Counted from the first letter of the stretch, positions 2,923 to 45,961 are shown. The stretch is DNA of 46,566 nucleotides from an uncultured archaeon (GCA_964508365.1 CAZDTP010000029.1:1-46566); one strand, 5' to 3'. Notes: generated from the letters alone by a model not told the origin. Numbers and translations: made by a program.

Positions 2923-3846
2923 CTAACTAAAATAGCTTTCTTTTAAACCTAATTCTCGTAAATATATCTTATATTTGCCCAATATACCCCCGTAATTTCC
3001 AGCAGAAATCTTAAGCAATCCATCTATGTCAGAAATACCTTCTATAGTCTTCTGCATTGCTAATTTTACATCATTAAGGTTAATTCCGTTAAATACAATC
3101 TCTGGTATTGATTTTACTTCTGCTGGGACTTGAAACTCCTCTGAAGATAGTTTATCTTTGAGCGAAGGGCAAAATGGATGATTTGTTGATGGACCAATTT
3201 CGGGATACTTAGCATCAGGGGGAACAGGTTTTGAACCTGCAGAACATACATCAAAAGTAGTACATACATTATCGAGTTCAGCCAGTATTTTTACTGCCTT
3301 TCTTCCAATCTTAATTCCAGATTCAATTGAGTCACAAAATAACCACAAATTCCCTCCCATAACGCCTTTAGCGTAAGAGATGTTTTCTTCAATTGTGAAA
3401 TCGTAACCCATCATGATTGGGATGTTAATCAATTTTCGATTAAATTTTTCGACTTTCCACTCGTATCCATCACCACAGTGACCCACATTATCCATCATAT
3501 TAAATTTTAACTCTGTTATTTCTGGATAATAATCAAAAACTGCAGTTGTTGGAACGACAAGAATACCTTGTCTTACTCTACGACCTAATTGATCGTAAAA
3601 CTTAGCAGTAGCTTTCTTACCTGTTCCTGTAACCCATAGTTGAACGATTGCTCCCAGCCTTCCATCGAAAGATTCTTTTTCTGTAAGCCATCGAACAATT
3701 CCACCCTCTGCATCTCCGAAAACAGTTGAAGGAAGTGCAGTAAATGCGTTTACGGCTCTAGTTAAGAACTCTGCGTCTTGTGCAGTGACCATTAATTGGA
3801 CAACTAATCCTTCAAAAGCTTCACAATAAGTATCCTCGACTTCCAT
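2923..3846 (-). CDS. ftr: Formylmethanofuran:tetrahydromethanopterin formyltransferase
   Basis: Ftr signature segments: EDTYCEAF, R(V)RQGILVVPTTAVF, GVMGGNLW, SAGSK, GPSTNHPFCPSL, EIVFNG, ISAGNYGGILGKYKIYL. Confidence 0.95.
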   Translation of the reverse strand: MEVEDTYCEAFEGLVVQLMVTAQDAEFLTRAVNAFTALPSTVFGDAEGGIVRWLTEKESFDGRLGAIVQLWVTGTGKKATAKFYDQLGRRVRQGILVVPTTAVFDYYPEITELKFNMMDNVGHCGDGYEWKVEKFNRKLINIPIMMGYDFTIEENISYAKGVMGGNLWLFCDSIESGIKIGRKAVKILAELDNVCTTFDVCSAGSKPVPPDAKYPEIGPSTNHPFCPSLKDKLSSEEFQVPAEVKSIPEIVFNGINLNDVKLAMQKTIEGISDIDGLLKISAGNYGGILGKYKIYLRELGLKESYFS

Positions 3847-26311: not shown

Positions 26312-27283
26312 TTACATCTTTCTGTTATTCTTCTGCTTTACGATAAAAACTATTGAAAAGACAACTATTATCGATCCAATTAAATGAAAAATTGTAAAAA
26401 GCTCACCCAATAAGAAAGTGGCAAATATGGCGGTAACAATTGGAGTGGGCGAGAAGATTATTGTAGCGTTCGATACATCCAAGTATGAGAGTGCTTTGTA
26501 CCAAAAAAAAAGTCCCAGTCCATAAACAGACCCCATTAATACAAAATAGAAAGTATTATATGGGTTATAAAAAACACTAAAATCTAATGGTGAAAAAATA
26601 ACGAATGTAATTATTAATATGATTCCACTTAATATATTTCGAATGAAAACCATCTGAATAGGGGTGATTTCTTTTCTAACAAACAAAGGTTTAGTTATAG
26701 TATGCCCAAACATCCACATCGCAGTTATTAACAATACTATAAAAACACCTATCAAAATCTCAGCGTTAAAACTAAGAAAATTGAATGATCCTTGAGTTAT
26801 TGCTAATACTAGGCCGAAAAAAAGGATAACCGAAAAAATGATTTGAACTCTCGATACTTTTTCTTTTAACAACAGAAATCCATATATTAATCCAAAGAAT
26901 ACAGAGGTTTTTTGAGTTAACGAACCATTAATTGCTCCAGCTAGTTTATATCCTACGAAGTATAAAAGCTGATTTATTCCAAATATTATACCTATAAGTA
27001 GCAATAACCAAAAATTTTTCCGTAAGCTTCGAATAAGTGAAATTTCTGGAATTAAATTAGTATTTGGCTTCTTTTTCTTCTTATTCATATGTGTCTCCAA
27101 AAGCATTATGGGAAGAAAGATAAACGCCTCGATCAAGCATGTCATAGCAGCGAATGCGTGCGAATCGATTGATTTAGCCGAATTTGCTACAATTGGTTGA
27201 AATCCAACGAAAACAATTCCTAAAATTCCAAAAATTAAACCTTTTCTTAAATCACTGCTCAAGATATCTAAGAAAAACATCAA
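26312..27283 (-). CDS. EamA/DMT family transporter
   Basis: About 10 TM helices in two EamA repeats (FLLLKEKVS; FLLGELFT..HLIG). Confidence 0.88.
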   Translation of the reverse strand: MMFFLDILSSDLRKGLIFGILGIVFVGFQPIVANSAKSIDSHAFAAMTCLIEAFIFLPIMLLETHMNKKKKKPNTNLIPEISLIRSLRKNFWLLLLIGIIFGINQLLYFVGYKLAGAINGSLTQKTSVFFGLIYGFLLLKEKVSRVQIIFSVILFFGLVLAITQGSFNFLSFNAEILIGVFIVLLITAMWMFGHTITKPLFVRKEITPIQMVFIRNILSGIILIITFVIFSPLDFSVFYNPYNTFYFVLMGSVYGLGLFFWYKALSYLDVSNATIIFSPTPIVTAIFATFLLGELFTIFHLIGSIIVVFSIVFIVKQKNNRKM

Positions 27284-28573: not shown

Positions 28574-29545
28574 TTAAGATCTCTTAGCTTTTCCACTTAA
28601 ACCTCTCTTTTCTTTAACAATCATAATGATGGAAAAGACAATTATGACTGTACCTATTAAATGGAAAATAGTGAAAATTTCTCCAAGGAAAAGGAAAGAA
28701 AAAAATGAAGAAACAATCGGAGTTAGTGATATAATTATACTAGCTTTTCCAATTTGAATATAAGTCAATACCTTGTACCAGAGATATAAACTGACGCCAT
28801 AATCTAATCCCATGATAAGGAAAAATATGAAATAATTTGGATTCAGTACTATAGCAATATTTTCAAGTGGAAAAATTAAGAAATATATGATTGTCAATAA
28901 CGTACCTGAAATAAAATTTCGAAAAAAGACGACTTGAGATGGGAACAGCTCATTTCTTTCAAAACTAATTTTTGTAAGTGAATGAACAAATGTAAATATT
29001 CCTACGCTTAAGAGAAGAATAGCTACGCCTAGATTGAATTCAAGCAAATTAAAAGATCCACCGGTAATCGCTATAATTAGTCCAAAAAACAAGAGAAAGC
29101 AAAATATGATCTGCATCTTGGTAATCTTTTCTTTTAATATTATAAATCCAAAGAACAAAGCTAATATTATTTCTGATTTTAATGTTAGGGAGCTTATTAT
29201 TGCTCCTGCCAATTCATAACCTATATAAAGTAAAATTGGAACTGCGCTAAATGTTATTCCTATAATTATAATCATTCTAAAATTTGATTTCTTTTTCCAA
29301 CCGTGAATTAAAGATAAAATCTTTTTATTTAGCTCTGAATCATTCAATATTTGTTTTTTAAATTTGCTTCTTTCTATTAAAAATATAGGAAAAAAGAGTA
29401 TAGCTTCAATCAAGGCTGTTACAGCTCCAAACAAATAAGGATCAATTATACTAGGGCGTGCATTAGAAATTACAGGTTGAAGTCCAATTGTGAAAATGCA
29501 AATCGAACCATAAATGATTCCTTTTTTTAAATTATAATTTTCCAC
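28574..29545 (-). CDS. EamA/DMT family transporter (paralog of 26312..27283)
   Basis: Same architecture: ILKEKIT and FLFLGEIFTIFHLIG. Confidence 0.88.
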   Translation of the reverse strand: MENYNLKKGIIYGSICIFTIGLQPVISNARPSIIDPYLFGAVTALIEAILFFPIFLIERSKFKKQILNDSELNKKILSLIHGWKKKSNFRMIIIIGITFSAVPILLYIGYELAGAIISSLTLKSEIILALFFGFIILKEKITKMQIIFCFLLFFGLIIAITGGSFNLLEFNLGVAILLLSVGIFTFVHSLTKISFERNELFPSQVVFFRNFISGTLLTIIYFLIFPLENIAIVLNPNYFIFFLIMGLDYGVSLYLWYKVLTYIQIGKASIIISLTPIVSSFFSFLFLGEIFTIFHLIGTVIIVFSIIMIVKEKRGLSGKAKRS

Positions 29546-29673: not shown

Positions 29674-31491
29674 TTATTTAGTATAAGTTCCAAATTTAGG
29701 AAAGCTTTTTAATTGATCAGAATTAAAGACGGGTCCATCTTTGCAAACAGTAATATTATTATTTACTCCTATGCAACAAGAACCGCATATTCCTAACCCG
29801 CATTTCATTTTTCTCTCTAAACTGGCTTGAATTTCAATATTCTTTGATTCCGCAAGTTCAAGAACTTTTTTCATCATAACTTCGGGTCCACATGTAACAA
29901 TCAAATCGAAGTTCTCCTTATTAATTAGATCTTCTACGGGATCAGTTACAACACATTTTTTACCAACAGATCCGTCTTCAGTAGTACACATCGTATTTGG
30001 AATCAATCCCAACAATCTCTCAGCGAATATTAACGAATCTTCATCTTTAGCTCCAATTGCAACTTGTACATTTGCTTTATTTTGTTTTAGAGTTTCTATT
30101 AAGGTTGTTAAGGCTGCGATTCCCATCCCTCCTCCTACTACAAGGATATTCTTCGAATCCTCATAATTAAACGAATTTCCAAGAGGACCTCTAATTCCAA
30201 TTGAATCTCCTTCGACCAATTCAAATAATTTGGATGTTCCCTCTCCTATTTTTTTAACAGTTATTTCGATAAGGTCTTCATCTATGCTCGAGATGGACAT
30301 TGGTAAGAAGTCAATATCAGGGAGCCATAATATGACAAACATTCCTGGTTTGTAAGCGCCCGCAATCCTCGAGTTTCTAATCATAAAACTTTTAATTTCG
30401 GGGGAATGGTTAGTTATTGATTCTATCTTGACGATATCAGTTTTATTTCTGGTTAGATCCAAAATGATTTCTTTCATGTTGTGTTCTAAAGGCACTGTTT
30501 CGATGAACCCTTGTTCAATGGCCAATTCATAAACTTGTTTACCTCTTTCTGTTCTCACAATTAGGGTATTCCACCCATCTTTACTACCATACTTTCCAAT
30601 TGATAAATCCGCGAAGGAAGCTGTGTAATCAGAACAGGAAAAGCAAGCTTTTCTAATCGCTTTTTCATATAAATTATTTAGTGGTATTTCTTTCACAGTC
30701 GAATTACAGATTATTTTCATGTTAAAGTTATCATTATCGATATCTATTTTATCTATCTCGCTTGATTTAATCCCGAATTCACTAAAAACCATTTCTAATA
30801 ATTGGTTATAATAAGTTCCAAAACAAAAAGTCCCAATAGCCAATGACACTAAATCATATGCTTCGTAATCAAAAGCAGGATGGTTTTGTAGTTTTCTTAG
30901 TGCCTGAATCTGACAAGGAGTGCCTACAACTGCAATATCTGTGCGTTCTTTATTGATAGCATCTCCTAAAAGTGAAAGTATTGGACCTTGACTTGGTTTG
31001 TATCCCGCTCCTTTGATTATATCCTGTGAATTCTGGGCTATTATTGGGAATGGCCTAAAATTATCGTCTTTATCTGTTATAATGGACGAATCAATTAAGT
31101 TATTTTCCATAGCGATCCATAGTAACCCGGTTAATGGACCAGCATTAGTTGGTATCCTTTTTCTTGCTTTATCTGTTAACTTAACTGAAACGATATCAAG
31201 ATAATGCCCTAAAATCTTATCGTGTTTCTTTCCAAAAACCCAATTGTCTAATAGCGACAAAGTTATCGTTTCAGTTTCTGTTTTTGGACAGAGATTATAG
31301 CAAAGTCCGTATCCATCTTTACATGTGTTCATATCTTTGCAGGACCCATCCTCTATTGGGATCTCCTTTTCTTTATCATATAAAATGTTTGTACAAAATG
31401 CCCCACAAGCTCCACAGTATACACATTTCCCCGTTTGAATTATTTCTTCGTATAACTCTTTCCAACCTTTTTGAACCTTCCCAAAATACAT
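29674..31491 (-). CDS. Fusion of an F420 hydrogenase/dehydrogenase beta subunit (FrhB/FpoF-like) and a PyrK/NfnA-like FAD/NAD-binding [2Fe-2S] electron-transfer domain
   Basis: N-terminal part: CVYCGACGAFC, C..C...CYNLCP, VVGTPCQIQALRK, IGTFCFG, CFSCSDYTASFADLSIG. C-terminal part: PGMFVILW, IRGPLGN, VGGGMGIAAL, TEDGS, CGPEVMM, SLERKMKCGLGICGSC...VCKDGPVF. Confidence 0.9.
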   Translation of the reverse strand: MYFGKVQKGWKELYEEIIQTGKCVYCGACGAFCTNILYDKEKEIPIEDGSCKDMNTCKDGYGLCYNLCPKTETETITLSLLDNWVFGKKHDKILGHYLDIVSVKLTDKARKRIPTNAGPLTGLLWIAMENNLIDSSIITDKDDNFRPFPIIAQNSQDIIKGAGYKPSQGPILSLLGDAINKERTDIAVVGTPCQIQALRKLQNHPAFDYEAYDLVSLAIGTFCFGTYYNQLLEMVFSEFGIKSSEIDKIDIDNDNFNMKIICNSTVKEIPLNNLYEKAIRKACFSCSDYTASFADLSIGKYGSKDGWNTLIVRTERGKQVYELAIEQGFIETVPLEHNMKEIILDLTRNKTDIVKIESITNHSPEIKSFMIRNSRIAGAYKPGMFVILWLPDIDFLPMSISSIDEDLIEITVKKIGEGTSKLFELVEGDSIGIRGPLGNSFNYEDSKNILVVGGGMGIAALTTLIETLKQNKANVQVAIGAKDEDSLIFAERLLGLIPNTMCTTEDGSVGKKCVVTDPVEDLINKENFDLIVTCGPEVMMKKVLELAESKNIEIQASLERKMKCGLGICGSCCIGVNNNITVCKDGPVFNSDQLKSFPKFGTYTK

Positions 31492-31492
31492 T

Positions 31493-32107
31493 TTAATTGT
31501 TCTCCTCCTTTAATTGGTTTAGAAAATTCATTGCTTCTTGTTTTCCTAGTTTAAAAGCTTCTAAGTTTTTATCTAAAGTAGAATTCGGAACAAATTTCTT
31601 TATAGTCTCTAAAGCAGATTCTTCGGAAAAGATTCCCGAAAGTATCATAAAGATACCAAACAAAATTGAGTTTCCAAAAACAATATTCCCGAACTTTTCA
31701 ACCGCTAATTTTTGGATGGGAATACCCAAAACCTTATTCATTTTTTTTACTGCTTTGAATTTTTTAATTGTAGTGGTGTCCCATACTAAAAATCCTGTGT
31801 TTTCCTCATCCTTTACAAAATCTACCTTAACATCATTAGCAGATTCTTCTGATAAGACGATTAAAAAATCGTACGGTTTTAAAGCTTTAGGGTAATCTAT
31901 AAGCTCTATATTTTTATCTAAGTCAATAACTACTTCTGCCCAACATTTTCCTCCTCTTGCAGCAGCGGAATAGGCTTCAGTTTGCGTAGCAGCAAGTCCT
32001 TCATAGATTGAACTTGCCATTATTATCATTTTACTAAGGGTGATAACTCCTTGTCCACCAAACCCACTTACTCGAATTTCATAACGAGACACGATTTCAC
32101 CTATCAC
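31493..32107 (-). CDS. 2-oxoacid:ferredoxin oxidoreductase gamma subunit (likely start GTG 32092)
   Basis: EIRVSGFGGQGVIT, QTEAYSAAARGG and NSILFG. Confidence 0.92.
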   Translation of the reverse strand: MIGEIVSRYEIRVSGFGGQGVITLSKMIIMASSIYEGLAATQTEAYSAAARGGKCWAEVVIDLDKNIELIDYPKALKPYDFLIVLSEESANDVKVDFVKDEENTGFLVWDTTTIKKFKAVKKMNKVLGIPIQKLAVEKFGNIVFGNSILFGIFMILSGIFSEESALETIKKFVPNSTLDKNLEAFKLGKQEAMNFLNQLKEENN

Positions 32108-33014
32108 CTTGTGCTATTTTTTGTATTTTAGCGTATTCTTCGGAATACTCGGGTTGATCTGGTGCATATCTAAATTCTCCAACAATGTATTTGTTAAATA
32201 GTTCTTCTTCATTCATGAACTTGGCTTGGTTTATTCTGACACTATTTCTTTTTATCCAATCTATCATCTTACCTGCTGTATCCATCTTCTCTCCTTTAAA
32301 TCCTAAGTATTCTGATCCAAGGTTATTTAAATTTTTACTCCCGAAGTAGGTAACGCAAGGAGTGATTAATTCTATCACAGAGGTTCCCTTATGCTTTAAT
32401 GCTTTTCTAAAATACTTCATAAAAGTGCGTGGATGCGCAACTGTTGTTCGTGCTACATAAGTTGCTCCCGCAGCCAAAGCCAGTTTAACTCCATCGCTTC
32501 TATTTTCAAACATTTTATATGGTGTCGTTGTGCTTTTAGCACCAAATAATGTCGTAGGTGCAGCCTGTCCACCTGTCATTGCGTAAATACTATTGTTGAA
32601 AATTAAAATAATACAATCTAAATTTCGACGGCATGTGTGTATAAAATGATTACCTCCGATACCCAAACAATCACCATCACCAGTAAAAATTATTGGTTTC
32701 ATAAGAGGATTTGCCATTTTCATACCTGTCGCTAAAGCTGGTGCACGACCGTGGAGAGACAAAACTTTTTGGGTTGCGTAGTGTACTGTTAATAGCATTT
32801 GAGAATAGCACCCTATACCAAGAACTAGTGGATATAGTTTTGGATCAAGTTTTTCATCTTCAAATAGTCGGGTAAAGATATGCCCGATGATTCCATATCC
32901 ACAACCTGCGCATAATCTAGACGAATAATTACCTAATAGGTGTCCAGCGTATGATACTAATACATATGGATTTTCTGGTTTCTCGTTTGGATACATAGGC
33001 CCTATTCCCGACAT
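32097..33014 (-). CDS. 2-oxoacid:ferredoxin oxidoreductase beta subunit (TPP-binding)
   Basis: LCAGCG, GIGC, LHGRA, GDGD..GIGGNHFIH, NNSIYAMTGGQ and ITPCVT. Confidence 0.95.
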   Translation of the reverse strand: MSGIGPMYPNEKPENPYVLVSYAGHLLGNYSSRLCAGCGYGIIGHIFTRLFEDEKLDPKLYPLVLGIGCYSQMLLTVHYATQKVLSLHGRAPALATGMKMANPLMKPIIFTGDGDCLGIGGNHFIHTCRRNLDCIILIFNNSIYAMTGGQAAPTTLFGAKSTTTPYKMFENRSDGVKLALAAGATYVARTTVAHPRTFMKYFRKALKHKGTSVIELITPCVTYFGSKNLNNLGSEYLGFKGEKMDTAGKMIDWIKRNSVRINQAKFMNEEELFNKYIVGEFRYAPDQPEYSEEYAKIQKIAQGDR

Positions 33015-34192
33015 TATTTAGCAACCCCCTTTATAACTTTTAAAATATCATTTGGATGGTGAATTTCACATACATTTGGAATCCTAATAATAGGGGTGTT
33101 AAGGTCAGTAACCCTTTCGACTTGTTCTGCTATAACTCCCGTGTAATTTAATTCTGGAACTATAACCACTTTGGCATCTTTAACCGCTTCTTTAACTTTT
33201 TCGTCTGGAAAAGGCCAAATTGTTATCAACCTAAAAATTCCAACTTTTATACCTTCTTTTCGAGCTAAATCAACCGCCCGATAACTCGCTCTAACCGGTA
33301 GTCCATACGCTATTATGATTATTTCAGCATCATCCAATTTATAAGTGTCCGTAAGAGCTATTTTATCTATATTGCTTGTAATTTTTTTAATCATCATTTC
33401 AGTGAATAATTGGGGTTTAGGGGTTGGCATACCTTCAAGACTATGAGGTTGAGAAAGAAACATGCCTGGACAGTAATCTGTGCCCATAATCGGTGGTTTA
33501 GGGATAATATATTTTCCTGTACTTTCATCTTTATATGAAAATTTTCCAGTGATATCTTCAGGTATTTCCCGCTCGATTACCATCTTTTCCAATTTTTCCT
33601 TAGATGGTATTTTAACTACTTCATGAAGATGTCCTAAATAAGCATCTGACATAATGAAAACAGGGCAGCGATAAGTCTCTGCAAAATTAAAAGCGACAAG
33701 GGTTAAATCATATAATTCTTGGCAACTCATAGGTGCTAAAGTAATTACTTGAAATTCGCCGTTTCCAGCAAAACGCATTAACCCTATATCGTTATGATGT
33801 GGTTCAGTTACATATCCCGTTCCTGGACCGTTCCTTTGTACGTCACAGAATACAAAAGGGATTTCTAAGTTCGCGGCCATTGAAATTGTTTCTGTCATTA
33901 AACATATTCCGGGACCAGAAGTTGCTGTCATAGCTTTAGCTCCAACTAAAGAAGCTCCAATTACAGCATTGATTGATGCTAATTCGTCTTCCATTTGCAT
34001 ACACACCCCTCCAATTTGGGGTAACCTAACAGCCAAATGTTCTATCACTTCTGTGCTTGGAGTAATAGGATACCCTCCGAAAAAATTTAATCCTGCAGCT
34101 AATGCCCCCTCAGACATCGCTATGTTTCCCATCATTAAATATTTACCTTCCGGTAAAAACCTTTTGTTATTTCCCATATCCATTTTTCTCAC
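33014..34192 (-). CDS. 2-oxoacid:ferredoxin oxidoreductase alpha subunit (likely start ATG 34183 after SD GAGGTGA)
   Basis: GNIAMSEGA, GYPITPSTE, QMEDELAS, ATSGPG and DVQRNGPGTG. Confidence 0.95.
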   Translation of the reverse strand: MRKMDMGNNKRFLPEGKYLMMGNIAMSEGALAAGLNFFGGYPITPSTEVIEHLAVRLPQIGGVCMQMEDELASINAVIGASLVGAKAMTATSGPGICLMTETISMAANLEIPFVFCDVQRNGPGTGYVTEPHHNDIGLMRFAGNGEFQVITLAPMSCQELYDLTLVAFNFAETYRCPVFIMSDAYLGHLHEVVKIPSKEKLEKMVIEREIPEDITGKFSYKDESTGKYIIPKPPIMGTDYCPGMFLSQPHSLEGMPTPKPQLFTEMMIKKITSNIDKIALTDTYKLDDAEIIIIAYGLPVRASYRAVDLARKEGIKVGIFRLITIWPFPDEKVKEAVKDAKVVIVPELNYTGVIAEQVERVTDLNTPIIRIPNVCEIHHPNDILKVIKGVAK

Positions 34193-34196
34193 CTCA

Positions 34197-34490
34197 TTAT
34201 ACTATGGCTTTTTTTATCACATTTCCATTATCTAATTCATCCAAAATATAAATACACCAATCCGGGCAACCATATTCGCATCGTTTACATGCTGTGCAAT
34301 ATTTTGCTTTTCCCTCTTTAACTCGTGGAGTATAAGCGATTCTCATATTTAACTCGTCTCCCATCTCTAGAATTCCCGTTGGACACACATATACACAAGC
34401 TTGGCAGCCTCCACACCGATTTTTATTTAGGAATAGTGAAAACATCTTATCCTTGTTTTCTAATAATTTTGGAATTTTAAACCAACTCAC
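34197..34490 (-). CDS. 2-oxoacid:ferredoxin oxidoreductase delta subunit (2x[4Fe-4S])
   Basis: CGGCQACVYVCP and CTACKRCEYGCPDWCI; first gene of the operon. Confidence 0.9.
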   Translation of the reverse strand: MSWFKIPKLLENKDKMFSLFLNKNRCGGCQACVYVCPTGILEMGDELNMRIAYTPRVKEGKAKYCTACKRCEYGCPDWCIYILDELDNGNVIKKAIV

Positions 34491-34691: not shown

Positions 34692-35432
34692 TTGACAAAG
34701 TTAATCTTTTTAGGATGTTTATCAAAAACTCGTTATCAAGAGACAAGTAAAAATGCAATTAAAATTATCAATTACTTAGATCCAAGCTACATCGTTTTAG
34801 AGGATATTCCGTGTTGCGGAGCTTTATCTTATCATATCGGCAGTGATATCGAGTTAAAAAATCATGTGGAATTTGTCAACAATTGGTTCGAATTAAACGA
34901 TGTGTCTGATATCGTGACTACATGCGCAGGATGTTATAACTATTTAACAAAATATTACACCCAATTCTTAGGAAAAGATTTTAAAATTAAAGTTAAGCAT
35001 TTCCTTCAGTTTCTAGCTGAACCAGAGAATATCTCAAAATTAGATTTAAAACATTCTGGTAAGAATTTAAAAGTTAGTTATCACGATGCTTGTCATTTAA
35101 GAAATGCTGTGGTTCCTATCATTGAGGAACCAAGAAAAATCCTAAATTCAATCGAAAATATTGAACTTAAGGAAATGGAAAATAATAAAACTAATAGTAT
35201 TTGTTGTGGTGCTGGAGGAGGTGTCTATTCAATATTTAAAGAAAATAGCGATTACAATTCAAAATTGATTTTTGATCAATTAAATCGTGGTAAAATCTTA
35301 TTAACAGCATGTCCTTTTTGTTTTACTTCACTAACTCGAATTAGAGAAGAGCATCAAATAAAGAAGCCAGTGATTAAATTTGAAGATTTTATTATAAACA
35401 TTATGGAAGGAGTTGATCCACTAAATGAATGA
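34692..35432 (+). CDS. CCG-domain Fe-S protein (LutA/HdrB/GlpC-like)
   Basis: FLGC, IPCCGA, VTTCAGC, YHDACHL, ICCGAGGG and LTACPFC. Confidence 0.85.
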   Translation: MTKLIFLGCLSKTRYQETSKNAIKIINYLDPSYIVLEDIPCCGALSYHIGSDIELKNHVEFVNNWFELNDVSDIVTTCAGCYNYLTKYYTQFLGKDFKIKVKHFLQFLAEPENISKLDLKHSGKNLKVSYHDACHLRNAVVPIIEEPRKILNSIENIELKEMENNKTNSICCGAGGGVYSIFKENSDYNSKLIFDQLNRGKILLTACPFCFTSLTRIREEHQIKKPVIKFEDFIINIMEGVDPLNE

Positions 35433-36726
35433 AAACGGAAAAGATTTATATGAGAATGTCAAGAAAAAAGTTGAAACTTCGCAGGAAGAAGGGACGTTAG
35501 AAAAACAATTTGGAAACTTCTGGAAAATGGCTTGTACGATAAAAACCAGACAACATGATTTAAGGTATTTATATGAAAATACAAGTCGAGAATTTGTCGA
35601 TAAAAATCGCGATAACCTTATTGAAATGCGAGAAGAGTTCGTTAACAATATGGAGTCGTATGTTGAAAAGTGCATCAATATAATGCGTAAGAAGAACTTC
35701 ACTGTTCATTATGCAAAAACAAATGAAGAAGCTCAAAAGATTTTTATGGAAGAATTAGGAGATACTAAGATCATTTATAAGTCTAAATCTAATGAAGCTA
35801 AAGATATTGGAATAATTGATGTTTTGAAGAAGAATAAAATTAAAATTAAAGAAACTGATTTAGGAGATGTTCTGGTTCAATTATTTGAATACGAATTACC
35901 AAGTTTTCAAGTTGGTCCAGGAGCTCATTTTACCGAAGAAGAAATAGCGAATAAAATTAAGGAGGTGTATGGAGTAGAACTTGAACCTAAAGCTCAAGCA
36001 ATTGTTGACTACTTTAGAAGTACTTATAGAAACGAGTTGCTCAACGATGTGAAAATATCTTTAACTTCTGCAAATGCCATATCTGCCGAAGATGGTACGA
36101 TAGTTTTGGGAGAAAATGAAGGAAACATCAGCCTTATTACAAGAGCGACGGAAAAGCACATCGTTGTATGTGGTATTACGAAAATTGTACCTAATATTTT
36201 GGATGCTGTTTTAATTACACAGTTACAATCTCGGATAAATAATGTTTCATATAATTACATAAGTCTCATTTCGGGACCCTCAAATACATCAGATATACAA
36301 GGTACAAGCGTTCAAGGCATGTACGGAGCAAAAGAAGTAGTAGTTATCCTTGTGGATGATTGGCGAACTAAAGCTGCTAACGAAAATCTCATTTATAAGG
36401 ACTTCTTGAAATGTATTGGTTGTAAAAGCTGTATTTTTCCTTGTACTGCATCACGAGCATTTGGAAATATTTACGCATCTAAGTATGGATTAGGTGCTAC
36501 TGCAATAATACGAGATTATATTCACAATGGAATCGAAGCTGCTGTAAATGACGGTCTTTTTCTCTGTACAGGATGCGAAAACTGTTATCACTGGTGTCCA
36601 GTTTCAATAAATTGTGGTGAAATTTTAAAAGATATGAAAAAAGAAGCTACAGAAAAGGGTTTAGCTCCCCCATACTTAGAGCAATATAAGGAGAAGATAT
36701 TTAGAGATAAAAATCCATTTTTATAA
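35425..36726 (+). CDS. LutB/LUD-domain Fe-S protein (lactate utilization protein B-like)
   Basis: KSKSN, ETDLGD, TSANAISAEDG, ENEGN, ISGPSNTSDIQ, GMYGAKEVVVILVD, CIGCKSCIFPC and CTGCENCYHWCP. It overlaps the upstream gene by 8 nt. Confidence 0.88.
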   Translation: MNENGKDLYENVKKKVETSQEEGTLEKQFGNFWKMACTIKTRQHDLRYLYENTSREFVDKNRDNLIEMREEFVNNMESYVEKCINIMRKKNFTVHYAKTNEEAQKIFMEELGDTKIIYKSKSNEAKDIGIIDVLKKNKIKIKETDLGDVLVQLFEYELPSFQVGPGAHFTEEEIANKIKEVYGVELEPKAQAIVDYFRSTYRNELLNDVKISLTSANAISAEDGTIVLGENEGNISLITRATEKHIVVCGITKIVPNILDAVLITQLQSRINNVSYNYISLISGPSNTSDIQGTSVQGMYGAKEVVVILVDDWRTKAANENLIYKDFLKCIGCKSCIFPCTASRAFGNIYASKYGLGATAIIRDYIHNGIEAAVNDGLFLCTGCENCYHWCPVSINCGEILKDMKKEATEKGLAPPYLEQYKEKIFRDKNPFL

Positions 36727-36738
36727 TTTATCTTGTTT

Positions 36739-37926
36739 TTATTTAAAATGCATGTATTGAAATGGTGATGCGGTATTTCTCCAAATAGCGATGTCGTTAA
36801 AACCTAATTTTTCCGCTTGAGTTTTTTCACCATTCAAAACCTTTTTCATCCTTAACCATAGAACTTCTGCAAGTTCCTCTATGGAATTTCCTCCTTTAAT
36901 TATTGAACTAACATCAACATCTATATTTTCTGCCATCCATTCGCAAGTTTTTGGATTCCCACATATTTTTATCACTGGAACTACAGGGTTTCCACAAGGA
37001 GTACCCCTTCCTGTCGTCATAGCGATAACATTTGCTCCTGCTCCAGCTAAACCTGTCATAGATTCCACATCCAAACTTGGTTCGATCATGAGCCATAATC
37101 CTTTCCCTCTAGGTTTCTCAGTATATTGAATTAACCCTTGAATAGGAGATTTTCCTGCCTTTGCGATGGTACCTAAACTTTTCTCTTCTATAGTTGTTAA
37201 TCCACCCTGAATGTTCCCAGGAGTAGGTTGCACTCCAAGGAAGTTAATTCCTAAACTTTTCAGATTTTCTAAAAAACCAGAAAGTAACTCATGTATTTGT
37301 TCTGCAACACTTTTATCAATGGCTCGTTTGATAAGTAAATGTTCAGTCCCAATCCATTCCGTAAATTCTGGTAATATAGAAGTCCCTCCATATTTAACGA
37401 TTCTATCAGATACAATTCCTAATGCTGGATTAGCTGATATTCCAGAAATTGAATCTGATGCCCCACATTCTAATCCTAAAACAATATGGGAGAAGTCAAA
37501 GGGTTCTCTTTTCATTTCTCTTGCTTCTTCTGAAATACTATTTCCAAGCTTAACACCTTTTTCTATCGCAGCTGGTGATCCTCCATTAACATCTTGTAAA
37601 TCAAAATATTCTACTGGTTTTTTCGATTTCTTGATATTTTTAGCTAGCAATTTACTGCTGATATTTTCACACCCTAAACCTACTACCACAGTCCCGAATA
37701 CATTAGGATTCGTTCCTAAACCAATTAAAGTTTTTAGAGTGTTGCTATAATCCGGTCCGAATTGACCACATCCTAAAGGATGAGTAATAGGTACAGCATC
37801 CTTAACTTTATTAGCAATTTGCTGAACTACATTATTTACGCATACAACAGAAGAAATAATTGCTATCTTATTTCTAATTCCTACTTCACCCCTTGGACGT
37901 TGATATCCCATAAATTCTTCATTCAA
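36739..37926 (-). CDS. UxaA/GarD family hydro-lyase large subunit (SuyB-like)
   Basis: FMGYQRPRGEVGIRN, HPLGCGQ, VVGLGCE, GLECGASD, SANPALG, NIQGGLTTIEEKSLG and TTGRGTPCG. Confidence 0.9.
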   Translation of the reverse strand: MNEEFMGYQRPRGEVGIRNKIAIISSVVCVNNVVQQIANKVKDAVPITHPLGCGQFGPDYSNTLKTLIGLGTNPNVFGTVVVGLGCENISSKLLAKNIKKSKKPVEYFDLQDVNGGSPAAIEKGVKLGNSISEEAREMKREPFDFSHIVLGLECGASDSISGISANPALGIVSDRIVKYGGTSILPEFTEWIGTEHLLIKRAIDKSVAEQIHELLSGFLENLKSLGINFLGVQPTPGNIQGGLTTIEEKSLGTIAKAGKSPIQGLIQYTEKPRGKGLWLMIEPSLDVESMTGLAGAGANVIAMTTGRGTPCGNPVVPVIKICGNPKTCEWMAENIDVDVSSIIKGGNSIEELAEVLWLRMKKVLNGEKTQAEKLGFNDIAIWRNTASPFQYMHFK

Positions 37927-38213
37927 AGTTTCAATACCTCCTTAAGATACTGGCTTGTAAGATTATGAGTATGAATCCAATCTCCTCTATTTATATCTTC
38001 TGTAGCAAATCCTATAGGATGGCCATATTTTTTAACCAAATCACCTTTTCTAATGTCTTCTAAAGCGATTTTATGTCCTAAGGGTATATTTTGGTTGATA
38101 ACAATAACGCGATCCTTTACCTTTAATTCAGTTTGGGGTAAAATATCTTCAAGAATTGTAGCACAATTATCATCGGGATGCATTATAATAAAATTAATAA
38201 AATGCTTAGGCAT
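37923..38213 (-). CDS. UxaA family SAF-domain small subunit (SuyA-like)
   Basis: HPDDNCAT, IPLGHKIAL, KYGHPIG and GDWIHTHNL; 4-nt overlap with the large subunit gene. Confidence 0.9.
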   Translation of the reverse strand: MPKHFINFIIMHPDDNCATILEDILPQTELKVKDRVIVINQNIPLGHKIALEDIRKGDLVKKYGHPIGFATEDINRGDWIHTHNLTSQYLKEVLKL

Positions 38214-38337
38214 GATTTATTGACTATTTTATAATTTTCTCGTTTATAATCTTTTTAAACTTTCTAAACATTTATATTATTTAATAATTACACTTGAAAC
38301 ATAATTGTAAAAATTAAAGCATAGGAGTTAAACAAAG

Positions 38338-40173
38338 TTGCCAAACGGATTTTTAGGTAAAATATTATGGGTAGATCTTACTAGTGAAACATTTAAAGAA
38401 GAAGAACTATCAGAACAAATTTATCGTCAATATATCGGAGGATTTGGTCTAGCAACCAAACTCATTTATGAAAATATGCCCTCAAAAACAGATGCTCTCA
38501 GTCCTGAATCTGTATTCGGATTTTTTCCAGGGTTATTAACTGGTACAGTTGCACCATTAACAGGTCGTTTCATGGTTGCAGGAAAATCTCCGTTAACAAA
38601 AACATGGGGTGACTCTAACTGCGGAGGGTATTTTGGTCCAGAAATTAAAAAATGTGGGTACGATGCAATTTTAATTAAAGGAATGGCTGATAGTCCAACA
38701 TATATAACAATATTGGAAGATGATAAGCAAAATATCGATGCTTCAGATTTATGGGGTTTGGATGTTGTTCAAACCGAAGATAAACTTAAAGAAAAATATG
38801 GAAGCGTTCAAATTGCTAGTATTGGTCAAGCAGGTGAAAATTTAAGTTTAATATCTGGAATTGTTAATGATAAAGCTAGGATTGCGGGAAGATCTGGATT
38901 TGGAGCAGTTATGGGATCTAAAAAACTAAAAGCGATTGTTCTCAAAGGAACAAGAAAGATTGAGGTTGCCGATAAAGACGCTCTTATCCAACATACAAAA
39001 GATTATAACGAAGGTATAAACAATGCTACAGCGGGTGGAATTGAGGGTTATAGGACATTAGGAACTACAATGGGAAATGAAATTTTATTTCAAATAGGAG
39101 ATACTCCCTGCAAGAATTGGGGGGGAACAAAAGAAGAATTTCCACCTGAGAGATTATCTAGAATATCAGGTATTGAAATAGATAAGTATAAACAAAAACC
39201 ATACGGATGCTTCTCATGTCCCGTTCGTTGTGGGGCAATCATGAAAGTTCCAGAAGTGGAGTTAGAAGAAACTCATAGACCAGAGTATGAAACATGTGCC
39301 AGTTTTGGACATCTCTTACTCAACGACGATCTTTTGTCAATATTTAAAGCCAACGACTTGTGTAATCGAGCGGGTATTGATACTATTTCTGCTGGGGCGA
39401 CAATTGCGTTTGCAATTGAATGTTACGAAAATAATTTAATTTCTAAGGATGATACTGACGGACTCGAATTGACTTGGGGAAATTCAGATTCTATAATTAC
39501 GTTATTAAATAAAATAATAAATCGGGAAGGAATTGGTGATTTACTAGCAGATGGTACTAAAATTGCAGCAGAAAAATTAGGGAGAGGATCAGAATACGCT
39601 ATGCATTCCTTAGGTCAAGAATTGGGCATGCATTCTCCAAAATATTATAAAAATATGGGAACTACTTTTGCTTTCGATCCAACACCAGGTAGACACACTA
39701 CAGCAAGTTTGGATTTTTTCGTAATGGGACCGATAATTAAACCCAATGGCTTATTTGAGGGAATAACGCTCCCAAAAAAATTTAAGCGTCCTGGTGATGA
39801 TAGAAGTGAAGCTGAAAAAATTTTTACTGCGATAATGCAATTTACTCATAGTCTTGGACTATGTGAGTTTGTATATGTTTTTCAGAAATATCCTCTATTA
39901 GAATTAATTAAAGCAGTTGTAGGATGGGACTTAGACATCGCCGAAGCGATTAAAACAGGTCAAAGAATTCAAACTTTGAGACAAGCATTCACACTCCGAG
40001 AAGGTATAGATATCATTAAGAATAAAATACCTGAAAGGACAGTAACTGTAGATTATTTAGAGGATTATAAAGGATATTGTGAAAAAATGGGTTGGAATCC
40101 TGAAACTGGTTATCCTCTCAAAGAAACATTGACAGATCTTAATTTAGATTTTGTTGTTAAGGATTTATTTTAA
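38338..40173 (+). CDS. aor: Tungsten-dependent aldehyde:ferredoxin oxidoreductase family protein (TTG start)
   Basis: YIGGFGLA, KSPLT...DSNCGG, AGRSGFGAVMGSKKLKA, CFSCPVRC, PEYET, GIDTIS and HTTA. Confidence 0.92.
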   Translation: MPNGFLGKILWVDLTSETFKEEELSEQIYRQYIGGFGLATKLIYENMPSKTDALSPESVFGFFPGLLTGTVAPLTGRFMVAGKSPLTKTWGDSNCGGYFGPEIKKCGYDAILIKGMADSPTYITILEDDKQNIDASDLWGLDVVQTEDKLKEKYGSVQIASIGQAGENLSLISGIVNDKARIAGRSGFGAVMGSKKLKAIVLKGTRKIEVADKDALIQHTKDYNEGINNATAGGIEGYRTLGTTMGNEILFQIGDTPCKNWGGTKEEFPPERLSRISGIEIDKYKQKPYGCFSCPVRCGAIMKVPEVELEETHRPEYETCASFGHLLLNDDLLSIFKANDLCNRAGIDTISAGATIAFAIECYENNLISKDDTDGLELTWGNSDSIITLLNKIINREGIGDLLADGTKIAAEKLGRGSEYAMHSLGQELGMHSPKYYKNMGTTFAFDPTPGRHTTASLDFFVMGPIIKPNGLFEGITLPKKFKRPGDDRSEAEKIFTAIMQFTHSLGLCEFVYVFQKYPLLELIKAVVGWDLDIAEAIKTGQRIQTLRQAFTLREGIDIIKNKIPERTVTVDYLEDYKGYCEKMGWNPETGYPLKETLTDLNLDFVVKDLF

Positions 40174-45040: not shown

Positions 45041-45961
45041 ATGAATTTCATTGAAGATTTAATTCAATCGATTGTCGATAAACGCAGTGTTGTATGTATG
45101 GGTTTAGATCCTCGATTGGATAAAGAAGGGGAAATTCCTAAATTTCTAATTAACAAATTTGAAGACCCGAACGCGATCATTCTTGAATTTAATAAAATTC
45201 TAATTGACAGCACATTTGATTTAATCCCAGTTATAAAACCACAAATAGCTTTTTATGAGAAATATGAGGCTCTTAACGCTTTAAAAGAAACCATAAAATA
45301 TGCCCATAAAAAGGATCTGCTTGTCATATTAGATTCTAAAAGAAACGATATCGGGGCGACTTCAGAAGCATATGCCCATTCCACATTTAAAGTATTTAAT
45401 GCAGACGCATGCACTTTAAATGCGTACCTTGGAATTGACGGAGTTAAACCTTTTTTAGAATATAAAGAAAAAGGGGTATTCATATTAGTAAAAACATCGA
45501 ATCCTAGTAGCAAAGATTTTCAGAACCTTTTTAGTGCCAGAATTCCAAACGCTTTAGATTCTGATATAGAAGTCAATGTAGAAAAAATAACCTTAGAAAG
45601 AAATTACATAAAAATGGCTCGACTCGTAGCAGATTGGGGCAAAAATTTAACCCAATTTTCAAATTTTCATAATTTAGGCGTAGTAGTAGGCGCACCATTC
45701 CCACAAGAGTTAAAGTCGATAAGGAATATTGTGAAAAATTCGTATATATTAATGCCTGGTTTTGGAGCTCAAGGTGCTGCAGCAGGAGATATAAAAGGTG
45801 GATTTAATGAAAAAGGCTTAGGGGGGATAGTTAACTCGTCAAGAGGAATAACATATGCTTATTTTAAAAATCAAAAATATCCCGCTGACAAATTTGGTGA
45901 GGCTGCAAGAGAAGAAGTAATTGCTATGAATCAGCATATTAACAAAGAAATTAATCTATGA
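45041..45961 (+). CDS. pyrF: Orotidine 5'-phosphate decarboxylase
   Basis: CMGLDP, KPQIAFYE, LDSKRNDIG (DxKxxD), LVKTSNP, GVVVGA, MPGFGAQG and NSSRGI. Confidence 0.95.
   Translation: MNFIEDLIQSIVDKRSVVCMGLDPRLDKEGEIPKFLINKFEDPNAIILEFNKILIDSTFDLIPVIKPQIAFYEKYEALNALKETIKYAHKKDLLVILDSKRNDIGATSEAYAHSTFKVFNADACTLNAYLGIDGVKPFLEYKEKGVFILVKTSNPSSKDFQNLFSARIPNALDSDIEVNVEKITLERNYIKMARLVADWGKNLTQFSNFHNLGVVVGAPFPQELKSIRNIVKNSYILMPGFGAQGAAAGDIKGGFNEKGLGGIVNSSRGITYAYFKNQKYPADKFGEAAREEVIAMNQHINKEINL

Follow-up and report, generated by a model that had tools for sequence, protein, structure and literature searches.

The window analysed here is a stretch of 46,566 nucleotides from an uncultured, Loki-type Asgard archaeon (GCA_964508365.1 CAZDTP010000029.1:1-46566), in which positions 29674 to 34490 encode, on the minus strand, a four-subunit 2-oxoacid:ferredoxin oxidoreductase (OFOR) followed by a 605-residue protein that joins an FrhB-like half to a PyrK-type half (FrhB::PyrK). 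Our analysis favours, at a little better than even confidence, the view that the five genes form one enzyme system in which the fusion is a dedicated fifth component, passing OFOR electrons to NAD(P)+, and possibly to F420, while bypassing free ferredoxin. This reading draws on the architecture of the fusion, the conservation of its cluster ligands, its invariant synteny and co-inheritance with the OFOR, and its homology to proven F420-reductase add-ons. The genes, in operon order, and the three parts of the fusion are:

34197..34490, minus strand: OFOR delta, a ferredoxin-like 2x[4Fe-4S] subunit of 97 residues (Pfam Fer4 families; best NCBIfam match OorD)
33014..34192, minus strand: OFOR alpha, 392 residues, with POR_N and PFOR_II domains (Pfam), of the KOR/OGOR-like (2-ketoacid/2-oxoglutarate oxidoreductase-like) clade
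32097..33014, minus strand: OFOR beta, the thiamine pyrophosphate (TPP)-binding subunit, 305 residues (Pfam TPP_enzyme_C)
31493..32107, minus strand: OFOR gamma, 204 residues (Pfam POR)
29674..31491, minus strand: the FrhB::PyrK fusion, 605 residues (Pfam, NCBIfam)
31237..31491, minus strand: fusion residues 1-85, ferredoxin-like, with Cys 23, 26, 29, 33, 51, 57, 64 and 68 and a predicted 2x[4Fe-4S] content
30442..31236, minus strand: fusion residues 86-350, an FrhB-like flavin/[4Fe-4S] domain with Cys 193, 223, 283 and 286
29674..30441, minus strand: fusion residues 351-605, a PyrK-type FAD/NAD(P) and [2Fe-2S] domain with Cys 564, 569, 572 and 583

The domain content of the fusion is well defined. 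Pfam recognises FrhB_FdhB_N at residues 115-175 and FrhB_FdhB_C at residues 185-336, both above their gathering scores (PF04422, 35.4 bits against 22; PF04432, 133.9 bits against 23.3), followed by NAD_binding_1 at 452-543 and DHODB_Fe-S_bind at 559-594. The PyrK half carries GEGT, GGGMGIA (453-459) and CGPE (534-537) motifs and the C-x4-C-x2-C...C pattern for a [2Fe-2S] cluster. All 16 cluster-ligand cysteines and the FNR-type motifs are invariant in the alignment of fusions, which includes a homologue of 42% identity. In MmFrhB the [4Fe-4S] cluster beside the FAD is held by C104, C134, C192 and C195 (PMC3591093), and the fusion has the FrhB-type set as invariant C193, C223, C283 and C286. 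The predicted cofactors are three [4Fe-4S] clusters, one [2Fe-2S] cluster and two FAD, and residues 1-85 are likely to serve as a docking and relay domain.

Comparison with solved structures points the same way. The phmmer matches of residues 13-351 are led by the zeta subunit of carbon monoxide dehydrogenase (CODH; 8riu_B, 5e-54), FwdI (8rja_E, 8e-43) and FrhB (4e-38), with Fsr, FdhB and HCAR behind them, and the C-half matches NfnA (4ylf_A, 2e-35) and PyrK (5ksw_B). An AlphaFold2 model built from 131 sequences has a pLDDT of 90.8 and a pTM of 0.87, with a link of only 3 residues between the final helix of the FrhB part and the opening strand of the PyrK part. By Foldseek, the N-half of this model falls in the FrhB fold (8riu_B, TM 0.84, root-mean-square deviation 2.4 A; FrhB 4ci0_C, TM 0.83) and the C-half groups with PyrK (5ksw_B, TM 0.85), the NfnI small subunit (5jca_S) and SHI gamma. 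Pfam, the cysteine pattern and Foldseek thus agree with the composition proposed in the first-pass annotation of this DNA, namely 2x[4Fe-4S], an FrhB-type domain and an FAD/NAD-binding [2Fe-2S] domain. Its description of the C-terminal domain as PyrK(NfnA)-like survives in its first half: the fusion passes the PyrK model NF000796 (261.1 bits, cut-off 224) and fails the NfnA-type model (NF004862-type; 173 bits, cut-off 220). No NfnB (GltD-like) partner gene adjoins the fusion.

CODH zeta and FwdI, the best matches of the N-half in both sequence and fold, come from Ca. Ethanoperedens thermophilum (8RIU, 8RJA; PMC11493965). They share with the fusion the N-terminal 2x[4Fe-4S] domain and the FrhB-like FAD/[4Fe-4S] domain, and in each case the gene belongs to the operon of an enzyme that releases CO2 and normally depends on ferredoxin. 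In zeta and FwdI the N-terminal ferredoxin domain docks at the ferredoxin site and the FAD/[4Fe-4S] domain reduces F420 (PMC11493965), and the CODH and Fwd complexes leave ferredoxin itself with impeded access (Lemaire, Wegener and Wagner 2024). In its homology to zeta and FwdI and its place in the operon of its host enzyme, the fusion resembles these 'all-in-one', ferredoxin-bypassing add-ons. It differs in that its host enzyme is an OFOR, in that the organisms are Asgard archaea and not ethanotrophs, and in that a PyrK-type FAD/NAD/[2Fe-2S] domain stands where zeta has a short C-terminal dimerisation tail.

Other published systems resemble the fusion in part. In ANME-1 an FrhB6 paralogue clusters with pyruvate:ferredoxin oxidoreductase (PFOR), a genomic prediction (Chadwick et al. 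2022, PMC9012536); there, as in the window, OFOR genes are accompanied by a member of the FrhB family, whose proposed role is to link 2-oxoacid oxidation to F420 reduction, although by description no PyrK domain is reported, the enzyme is a PFOR instead of a KOR/OGOR-like one, and the phylum is another. Group I Fsr (7NP8, 7NPA; PMC10229431) likewise strings ferredoxin, FrhB-like and C-terminal redox domains along a single chain with a [4Fe-4S] relay, but its C-terminal unit is a siroheme sulfite reductase and not PyrK-type, and it stands alone, outside the operon of another enzyme. The PyrK/NfnA/HydG fold of the C-half, with FAD, an NAD(P) site and [2Fe-2S], is that of NfnAB, dihydroorotate dehydrogenase B (DHODB) and the sulfhydrogenase beta-gamma unit (4YLF, 5JCA, 1EP1, 9NEZ). 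Such units serve a partner redox protein, which in the fusion is an FrhB-like domain in cis rather than PyrD, NfnB or HydB, and the total cofactor set of the fusion resembles that of Nfn.

OFOR cores with an added flavoprotein that redirects electrons from ferredoxin are also known from the phenylglyoxylate:NAD+ enzyme PadEFGHI and the 2-oxoglutarate:NADP+ enzyme KorABC of Azoarcus. Their extra subunits have unrelated folds and, unlike the fusion, lack an FrhB-like domain. NCBIfam Pad models match the core subunits of our OFOR weakly.

The mechanism that we infer, with its physical docking, its order of cofactors and its choice of acceptor, would run as follows. The N-terminal 2x[4Fe-4S] domain of the fusion would dock at delta in place of free ferredoxin, and the fusion would accept the two low-potential electrons that the 2-oxoacid yields on oxidative decarboxylation. 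These would travel through the [4Fe-4S] cluster and FAD of the FrhB domain and the [2Fe-2S] cluster and FAD of the PyrK domain, to leave as hydride: the PyrK-type site would deliver it to NAD(P)+, and the FrhB-type site might deliver it to F420. Overall, this would give a 2-oxoacid:NAD(P)+/F420 oxidoreductase that works without ferredoxin and is strongly exergonic.

The linkage of the fusion to its OFOR is consistent across relatives. Gamma lies immediately 5' of the fusion in 29/29 loci from other genomes, the order delta-alpha-beta-gamma-fusion is kept in nearly all loci that have 6-kb flanks, and the same five-gene operon is found in both divergent lineages (42% and 36% identity). Such an arrangement is far beyond chance; the synteny and the recurring domain architecture had both been named in the first-pass annotation as a check on its proposal. 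Within the window's GTDB family (f1; 68 genomes), 40 genomes have the fusion together with the orthologous alpha, defined at >=72% identity, and 24 have neither. The 4 discordant genomes are 71-88% complete and have the genes at contig ends, and 5 near-complete genomes of the family without the fusion lack the orthologous alpha as well. Because these kin are not independent, the co-inheritance is a strong association and not statistical proof.

The fusion itself is conserved but narrowly distributed. It recurs at 66-93% identity in >120 protein clusters (90% identity) with the same 605-residue frame in independent assemblies. Among 1.84 billion 50%-identity representatives, only 3 clusters have the full architecture (P0121, 66%; P0123, 42%; P0124, 36%, truncated by its contig); the remaining matches are FrhB-only, PyrK-only or PyrK-PyrD. 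The nearest FrhB-only representatives are not beside an OFOR: P0128 adjoins NuoJ/K-like genes, and the surroundings of P0145 lack a redox partner. Several candidates for a fusion in reverse order were rejected, P0151 as PyrK with an unrelated C-half and P0185, P0196 and P0265 as PyrK-PyrD fusions. Across 300 genomes from the phylum, full-length copies of the fusion are confined to the window's family (42/68 genomes), and in the species-representative collection 21/21 full-length loci are labelled Asgard (Promethearchaeota, or Hod-/Thorarchaeota). The ESM Atlas returned low-score matches only (<=0.76), to bacterial AsrA::AsrB-like fusions. A literature search pairing FrhB with PyrK found no papers, and the fusion goes unmentioned both in the papers examined on Asgard metabolism and in a survey of archaeal gene fusions.

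The core enzyme has the delta, alpha, beta and gamma subunits of a four-subunit OFOR (KOR/2-oxoglutarate oxidoreductase type) with their characteristic domains, and its PDB matches are 1yd7, 8ys5 and 6n2n. The best PDB match of alpha is 1yd7_A, the alpha subunit of the P. furiosus 2-ketoacid:ferredoxin oxidoreductase (5.7e-77), followed by the 2-oxoglutarate enzymes 8ys5 and 6n2n; that of beta is 8ys5_C, a 2-oxoglutarate oxidoreductase beta subunit (5e-45). The scores against substrate-specific NCBIfam equivalog models all lie below the cut-offs, including those of alpha against NF006412 (392 bits, cut-off 411) and beta against the 2-oxoglutarate type (190 bits, cut-off 364). Judged from these comparisons, the OFOR is a member of the KOR/OGOR-like clade.

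Open reading frames and Pfam domains bear out the gene order and positions read in the first pass, and the operon is tightly packed. Of the close coupling claimed there, the TAATG overlap of alpha and beta and the single nucleotide between the gamma stop and the fusion ATG stand, and GGAGG lies 12 nt upstream of the fusion start. The other junctions probably shift. Since relatives of gamma align only from residue 6, its true start is more likely GTG 32092, which would leave a 4-nt gap to beta instead of an 11-nt overlap. Similarly, delta more likely starts at ATG 34445, downstream of its longest-frame start, and alpha at ATG 34183, which is preceded by a GAGGTG motif.

A second line of comparison comes from parallel OFORs. 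The closest OFOR paralogue in the source genome (4.07 Mb, 100% complete) is on contig C56, where alpha is 43% identical and an HdrA::MvhD gene follows after 22 nt. The locus (C56:18575-23960; L131:2575-7959) carries gamma, alpha and beta and then an HdrA::MvhD of at least 769 residues, cut short by the end of the contig. The homologous OFOR operons of two further Asgard families run on into HdrA-like, MvhD, MvhG and MvhA ([NiFe] hydrogenase) genes (L150, G026:C1:2650600-2659000; L147, G118:C78; L148, G022:C63). These last operons suggest a ferredoxin-independent, H2-evolving 2-oxoacid oxidoreductase. The HdrA modules occupy the operon slot held here by FrhB::PyrK. Taken together, the HdrA::MvhD and HdrA-MvhD-MvhG-MvhA parallels therefore indicate that this OFOR clade has repeatedly been hard-wired to flavin-based output modules.

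Whether F420 is a partner is less clear. The genome has the means to make and use the cofactor: cofH (470 bits, cut-off 374), cofE (262, cut-off 181) and cofD (312, cut-off 257), genes whose presence the first pass had listed as a check, are all above cut-off, and the F420-dependent Mtd scores 351 bits. It also encodes about eleven FrhB paralogues, several beside tandem-HdrA/MvhD and CCG proteins. Two such clusters, on C46 (L152) and C72 (L153), pair FrhB-like paralogues of 370-497 residues with tandem HdrA proteins of 1013-1161 residues, one with a fused MvhD, and CCG HdrB-like proteins; from their gene content they look like F420-linked Hdr-type complexes in a non-methanogen. Mills et al. 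(PMC3591093) put the F420 ring of FrhB beside two small residues, S209/V210, and the conserved turn IGKGK; these markers derive from a 2013 cryo-EM model and carry moderate weight. GS[VI]GS is retained in zeta, FwdI and FrhB, and the fusion differs from its Ethanoperedens relatives in keeping neither this motif nor the KGK turn, although FwdI lacks the turn as well. At the marker sites the fusion family is variable, with the consensus G-x-[FYIVM]-G-S and T-D-K-N-N-F.

Several points weigh against the reading that we favour. The F420-site markers are replaced in the window's fusion by G-K300-Y301-G-S and D-I-D-N-D-N-F, so that F420 may not be a substrate. Deviations are seen in other FrhB paralogues too, and the KGK turn is missing even from FwdI, which is proven to reduce F420, so this divergence is a warning and not a refutation. 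The physical association of the fusion with the OFOR is one that we infer from gene order and homology. Handing -500 mV electrons to carriers at about -320 to -340 mV squanders energy if the step is not coupled to something. Finally, the operon is missing from about one third of the family's genomes and is therefore accessory. The first-pass idea of a hub for OFOR electrons fares unevenly: as a module it matches the closest solved relatives, but its F420 reactivity is not established, given the diverged markers.

A rival reading is an Nfn-like bifurcation or confurcation, which we regard as rather unlikely. The FrhB FAD would then be the central flavin, with a high-potential branch from the [2Fe-2S] cluster through the PyrK FAD to NAD(P) and a low-potential branch through the three [4Fe-4S] clusters to OFOR or ferredoxin; the FrhB FAD would swap hydride with F420 or another carrier, and oxidation or synthesis of the 2-oxoacid would be coupled to two pyridine/deazaflavin pools. 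The cofactor inventory (2 FAD, 1 [2Fe-2S], 3 [4Fe-4S]) is near that of NfnAB, the C-half resembles NfnA in its PDB matches (4ylf_A and 5jca_S), and the high pTM suggests rigid packing. A PyrK-type [2Fe-2S] cluster normally faces a partner flavin, as in DHODB and Nfn, and HdrA, which paralogous OFOR operons hold in the same slot, is a known bifurcating flavoprotein. Set against this resemblance to Nfn, the model scores make the C-half PyrK proper and not NfnA-type, the F420-site markers diverge, and the genome already has a canonical NfnAB on contig C82 (NfnA 358 bits, NfnB 588 bits). Moreover, bifurcation is not known for the FrhB fold. The more specific form of this idea, in which a single-chain bifurcating or confurcating FrhB+PyrK module is hard-wired to the OFOR and couples it at once to the pools of NAD(P) and of F420, with no free ferredoxin involved, is likewise improbable.

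The domain order of Fsr raises a different prospect, in which the fusion would share a transcript with the OFOR without binding it and would act by itself as an F420H2:NAD(P)+ oxidoreductase. As an Fsr-like head-to-tail dimer of ferredoxin, FrhB-like and C-terminal catalytic domains (PMC10229431; Foldseek 7np8, 7npa), it would pass electrons between monomers. In its favour, TIGR01915 finds no match for Fno in the complete source genome even though F420 is made and used there. Full-length Fno-like genes below the cut-off (75-97 bits) occur in 28/30 genomes of the sister genus g2 and 4/6 of g7 and are nearly absent from the window's own genus g1; family f1 shows no complementarity between Fno and the fusion, and the two co-occur in g2. 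This version would not explain why the fusion is inherited so strictly with, and set 1 nt behind, a single OFOR; the F420-site markers diverge, and such a transhydrogenase would have no need of a three-cluster wire. We consider this arrangement unlikely.

The marker divergence could also be taken at face value, giving a 2-oxoacid:NAD(P)+ oxidoreductase without F420 in which the FrhB-like domain has become a flavin/Fe-S relay inside the protein, with the PyrK domain filling its former F420 pocket or the pocket being shut. K300/Y301 in place of the small S/V pair and DNDN in place of the KGK turn would fit such a pocket, as would the start of the PyrK domain 3 residues past the helix that in FrhB begins at the F420 access channel; PadEFGHI and Azoarcus KorC show that an OFOR can carry a flavoprotein subunit that reduces NAD(P). 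Position 300 is variable, however, as expected of an exposed site and not of a buried interface, other FrhB paralogues whose motifs deviate are found in Hdr-like clusters for which F420 use is presumed, and the missing turn did not prevent FwdI from reducing F420. This version is in any case a sub-case of the reading we favour and not a true alternative, and on its own we hold it to be quite doubtful.

Public records (P0003, P0027, P0046 and others) name the fusion 'dihydroorotate dehydrogenase electron transfer subunit'. This label is a systematic misannotation, arising because the PyrK-type C-half passes its hidden Markov model cut-off. The only pyrD of the genome lies elsewhere (C10:9783-10625) with its own pyrK directly after it (274 bits), and pyrD is absent from every fusion locus examined. 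We therefore reject a role as the pyrimidine-pathway PyrK, which the first pass had offered as a possible refutation, together with an assembly chimera, which the shared 605-residue frame in independent assemblies and the operon common to two divergent lineages rule out; the chance that either is correct is very small.

The surroundings of the operon offer further observations. Its neighbours in the window, by Pfam, are EamA transporters, a URO-D-like gene and a divergent LutA/LutB-like pair, and none of the adjoining genes is pyrD, nfnB or a hydrogenase gene, which agrees with the first reading. The wider neighbourhood varies between relatives, with EamA often nearby. The downstream gene is:

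28574..29545, minus strand: EamA/DMT-family transporter (Pfam EamA)

A second EamA/DMT transporter lies at 26312-27283. In many relatives from the main family an EamA gene is directly downstream of the operon, and in the 42% and 36% lineages it is divergent and upstream. The transporters may carry substrate or product; theirs is an association only, as putative members of the operon. Upstream (window 34692-40173) is a cluster of LutA-like (CCG), LutB-like (LUD+Fer4), UxaA/SAF-type lyase and AOR genes, kept in at least one relative of 71% identity (L133:1-5828) and not in another relative (L132), where aconitase-like LeuCD-type genes stand ahead of delta. Farther away, ftr (FTR and FTR_C) was confirmed at window 2923-3846 on the minus strand, and an OMPdecase/HUMPS-family gene at 45041-45961 on the plus strand, 11 kb from the operon, is a candidate pyrF or hexulose-phosphate synthase. 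Elsewhere in the genome, a 920-residue protein with HdrC-like, GltD/NfnB-like and CCG/TfrB-like parts (C82:2845-5607; L129) adjoins the canonical NfnAB, and contig C4 carries a HydB/HydG-like pair.

Oxidation of 2-oxoacids is regarded as the main energy-yielding step in amino-acid-fermenting Asgard archaea (PMC7015854), and current models assume that OFOR electrons leave as free reduced ferredoxin. The source genome has two OFOR paralogues with two flavin modules, FrhB::PyrK here and HdrA::MvhD on C56. Beyond correcting a systematic database misannotation, a dedicated fifth component would extend to OFORs the 'bolt-on reductase' principle, so far shown for CODH and Fwd only. The system may also connect to the tetrahydromethanopterin (H4MPT) pathway. 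If the fusion were instead to bifurcate, it would be a functional analogue of NfnAB on a different scaffold, serving 2-oxoacid oxidation or reductive carboxylation in Asgard archaea. If our favoured reading is correct, electron disposal in these organisms would be set at the enzyme itself, which would alter the energetics in models of syntrophy and eukaryogenesis.

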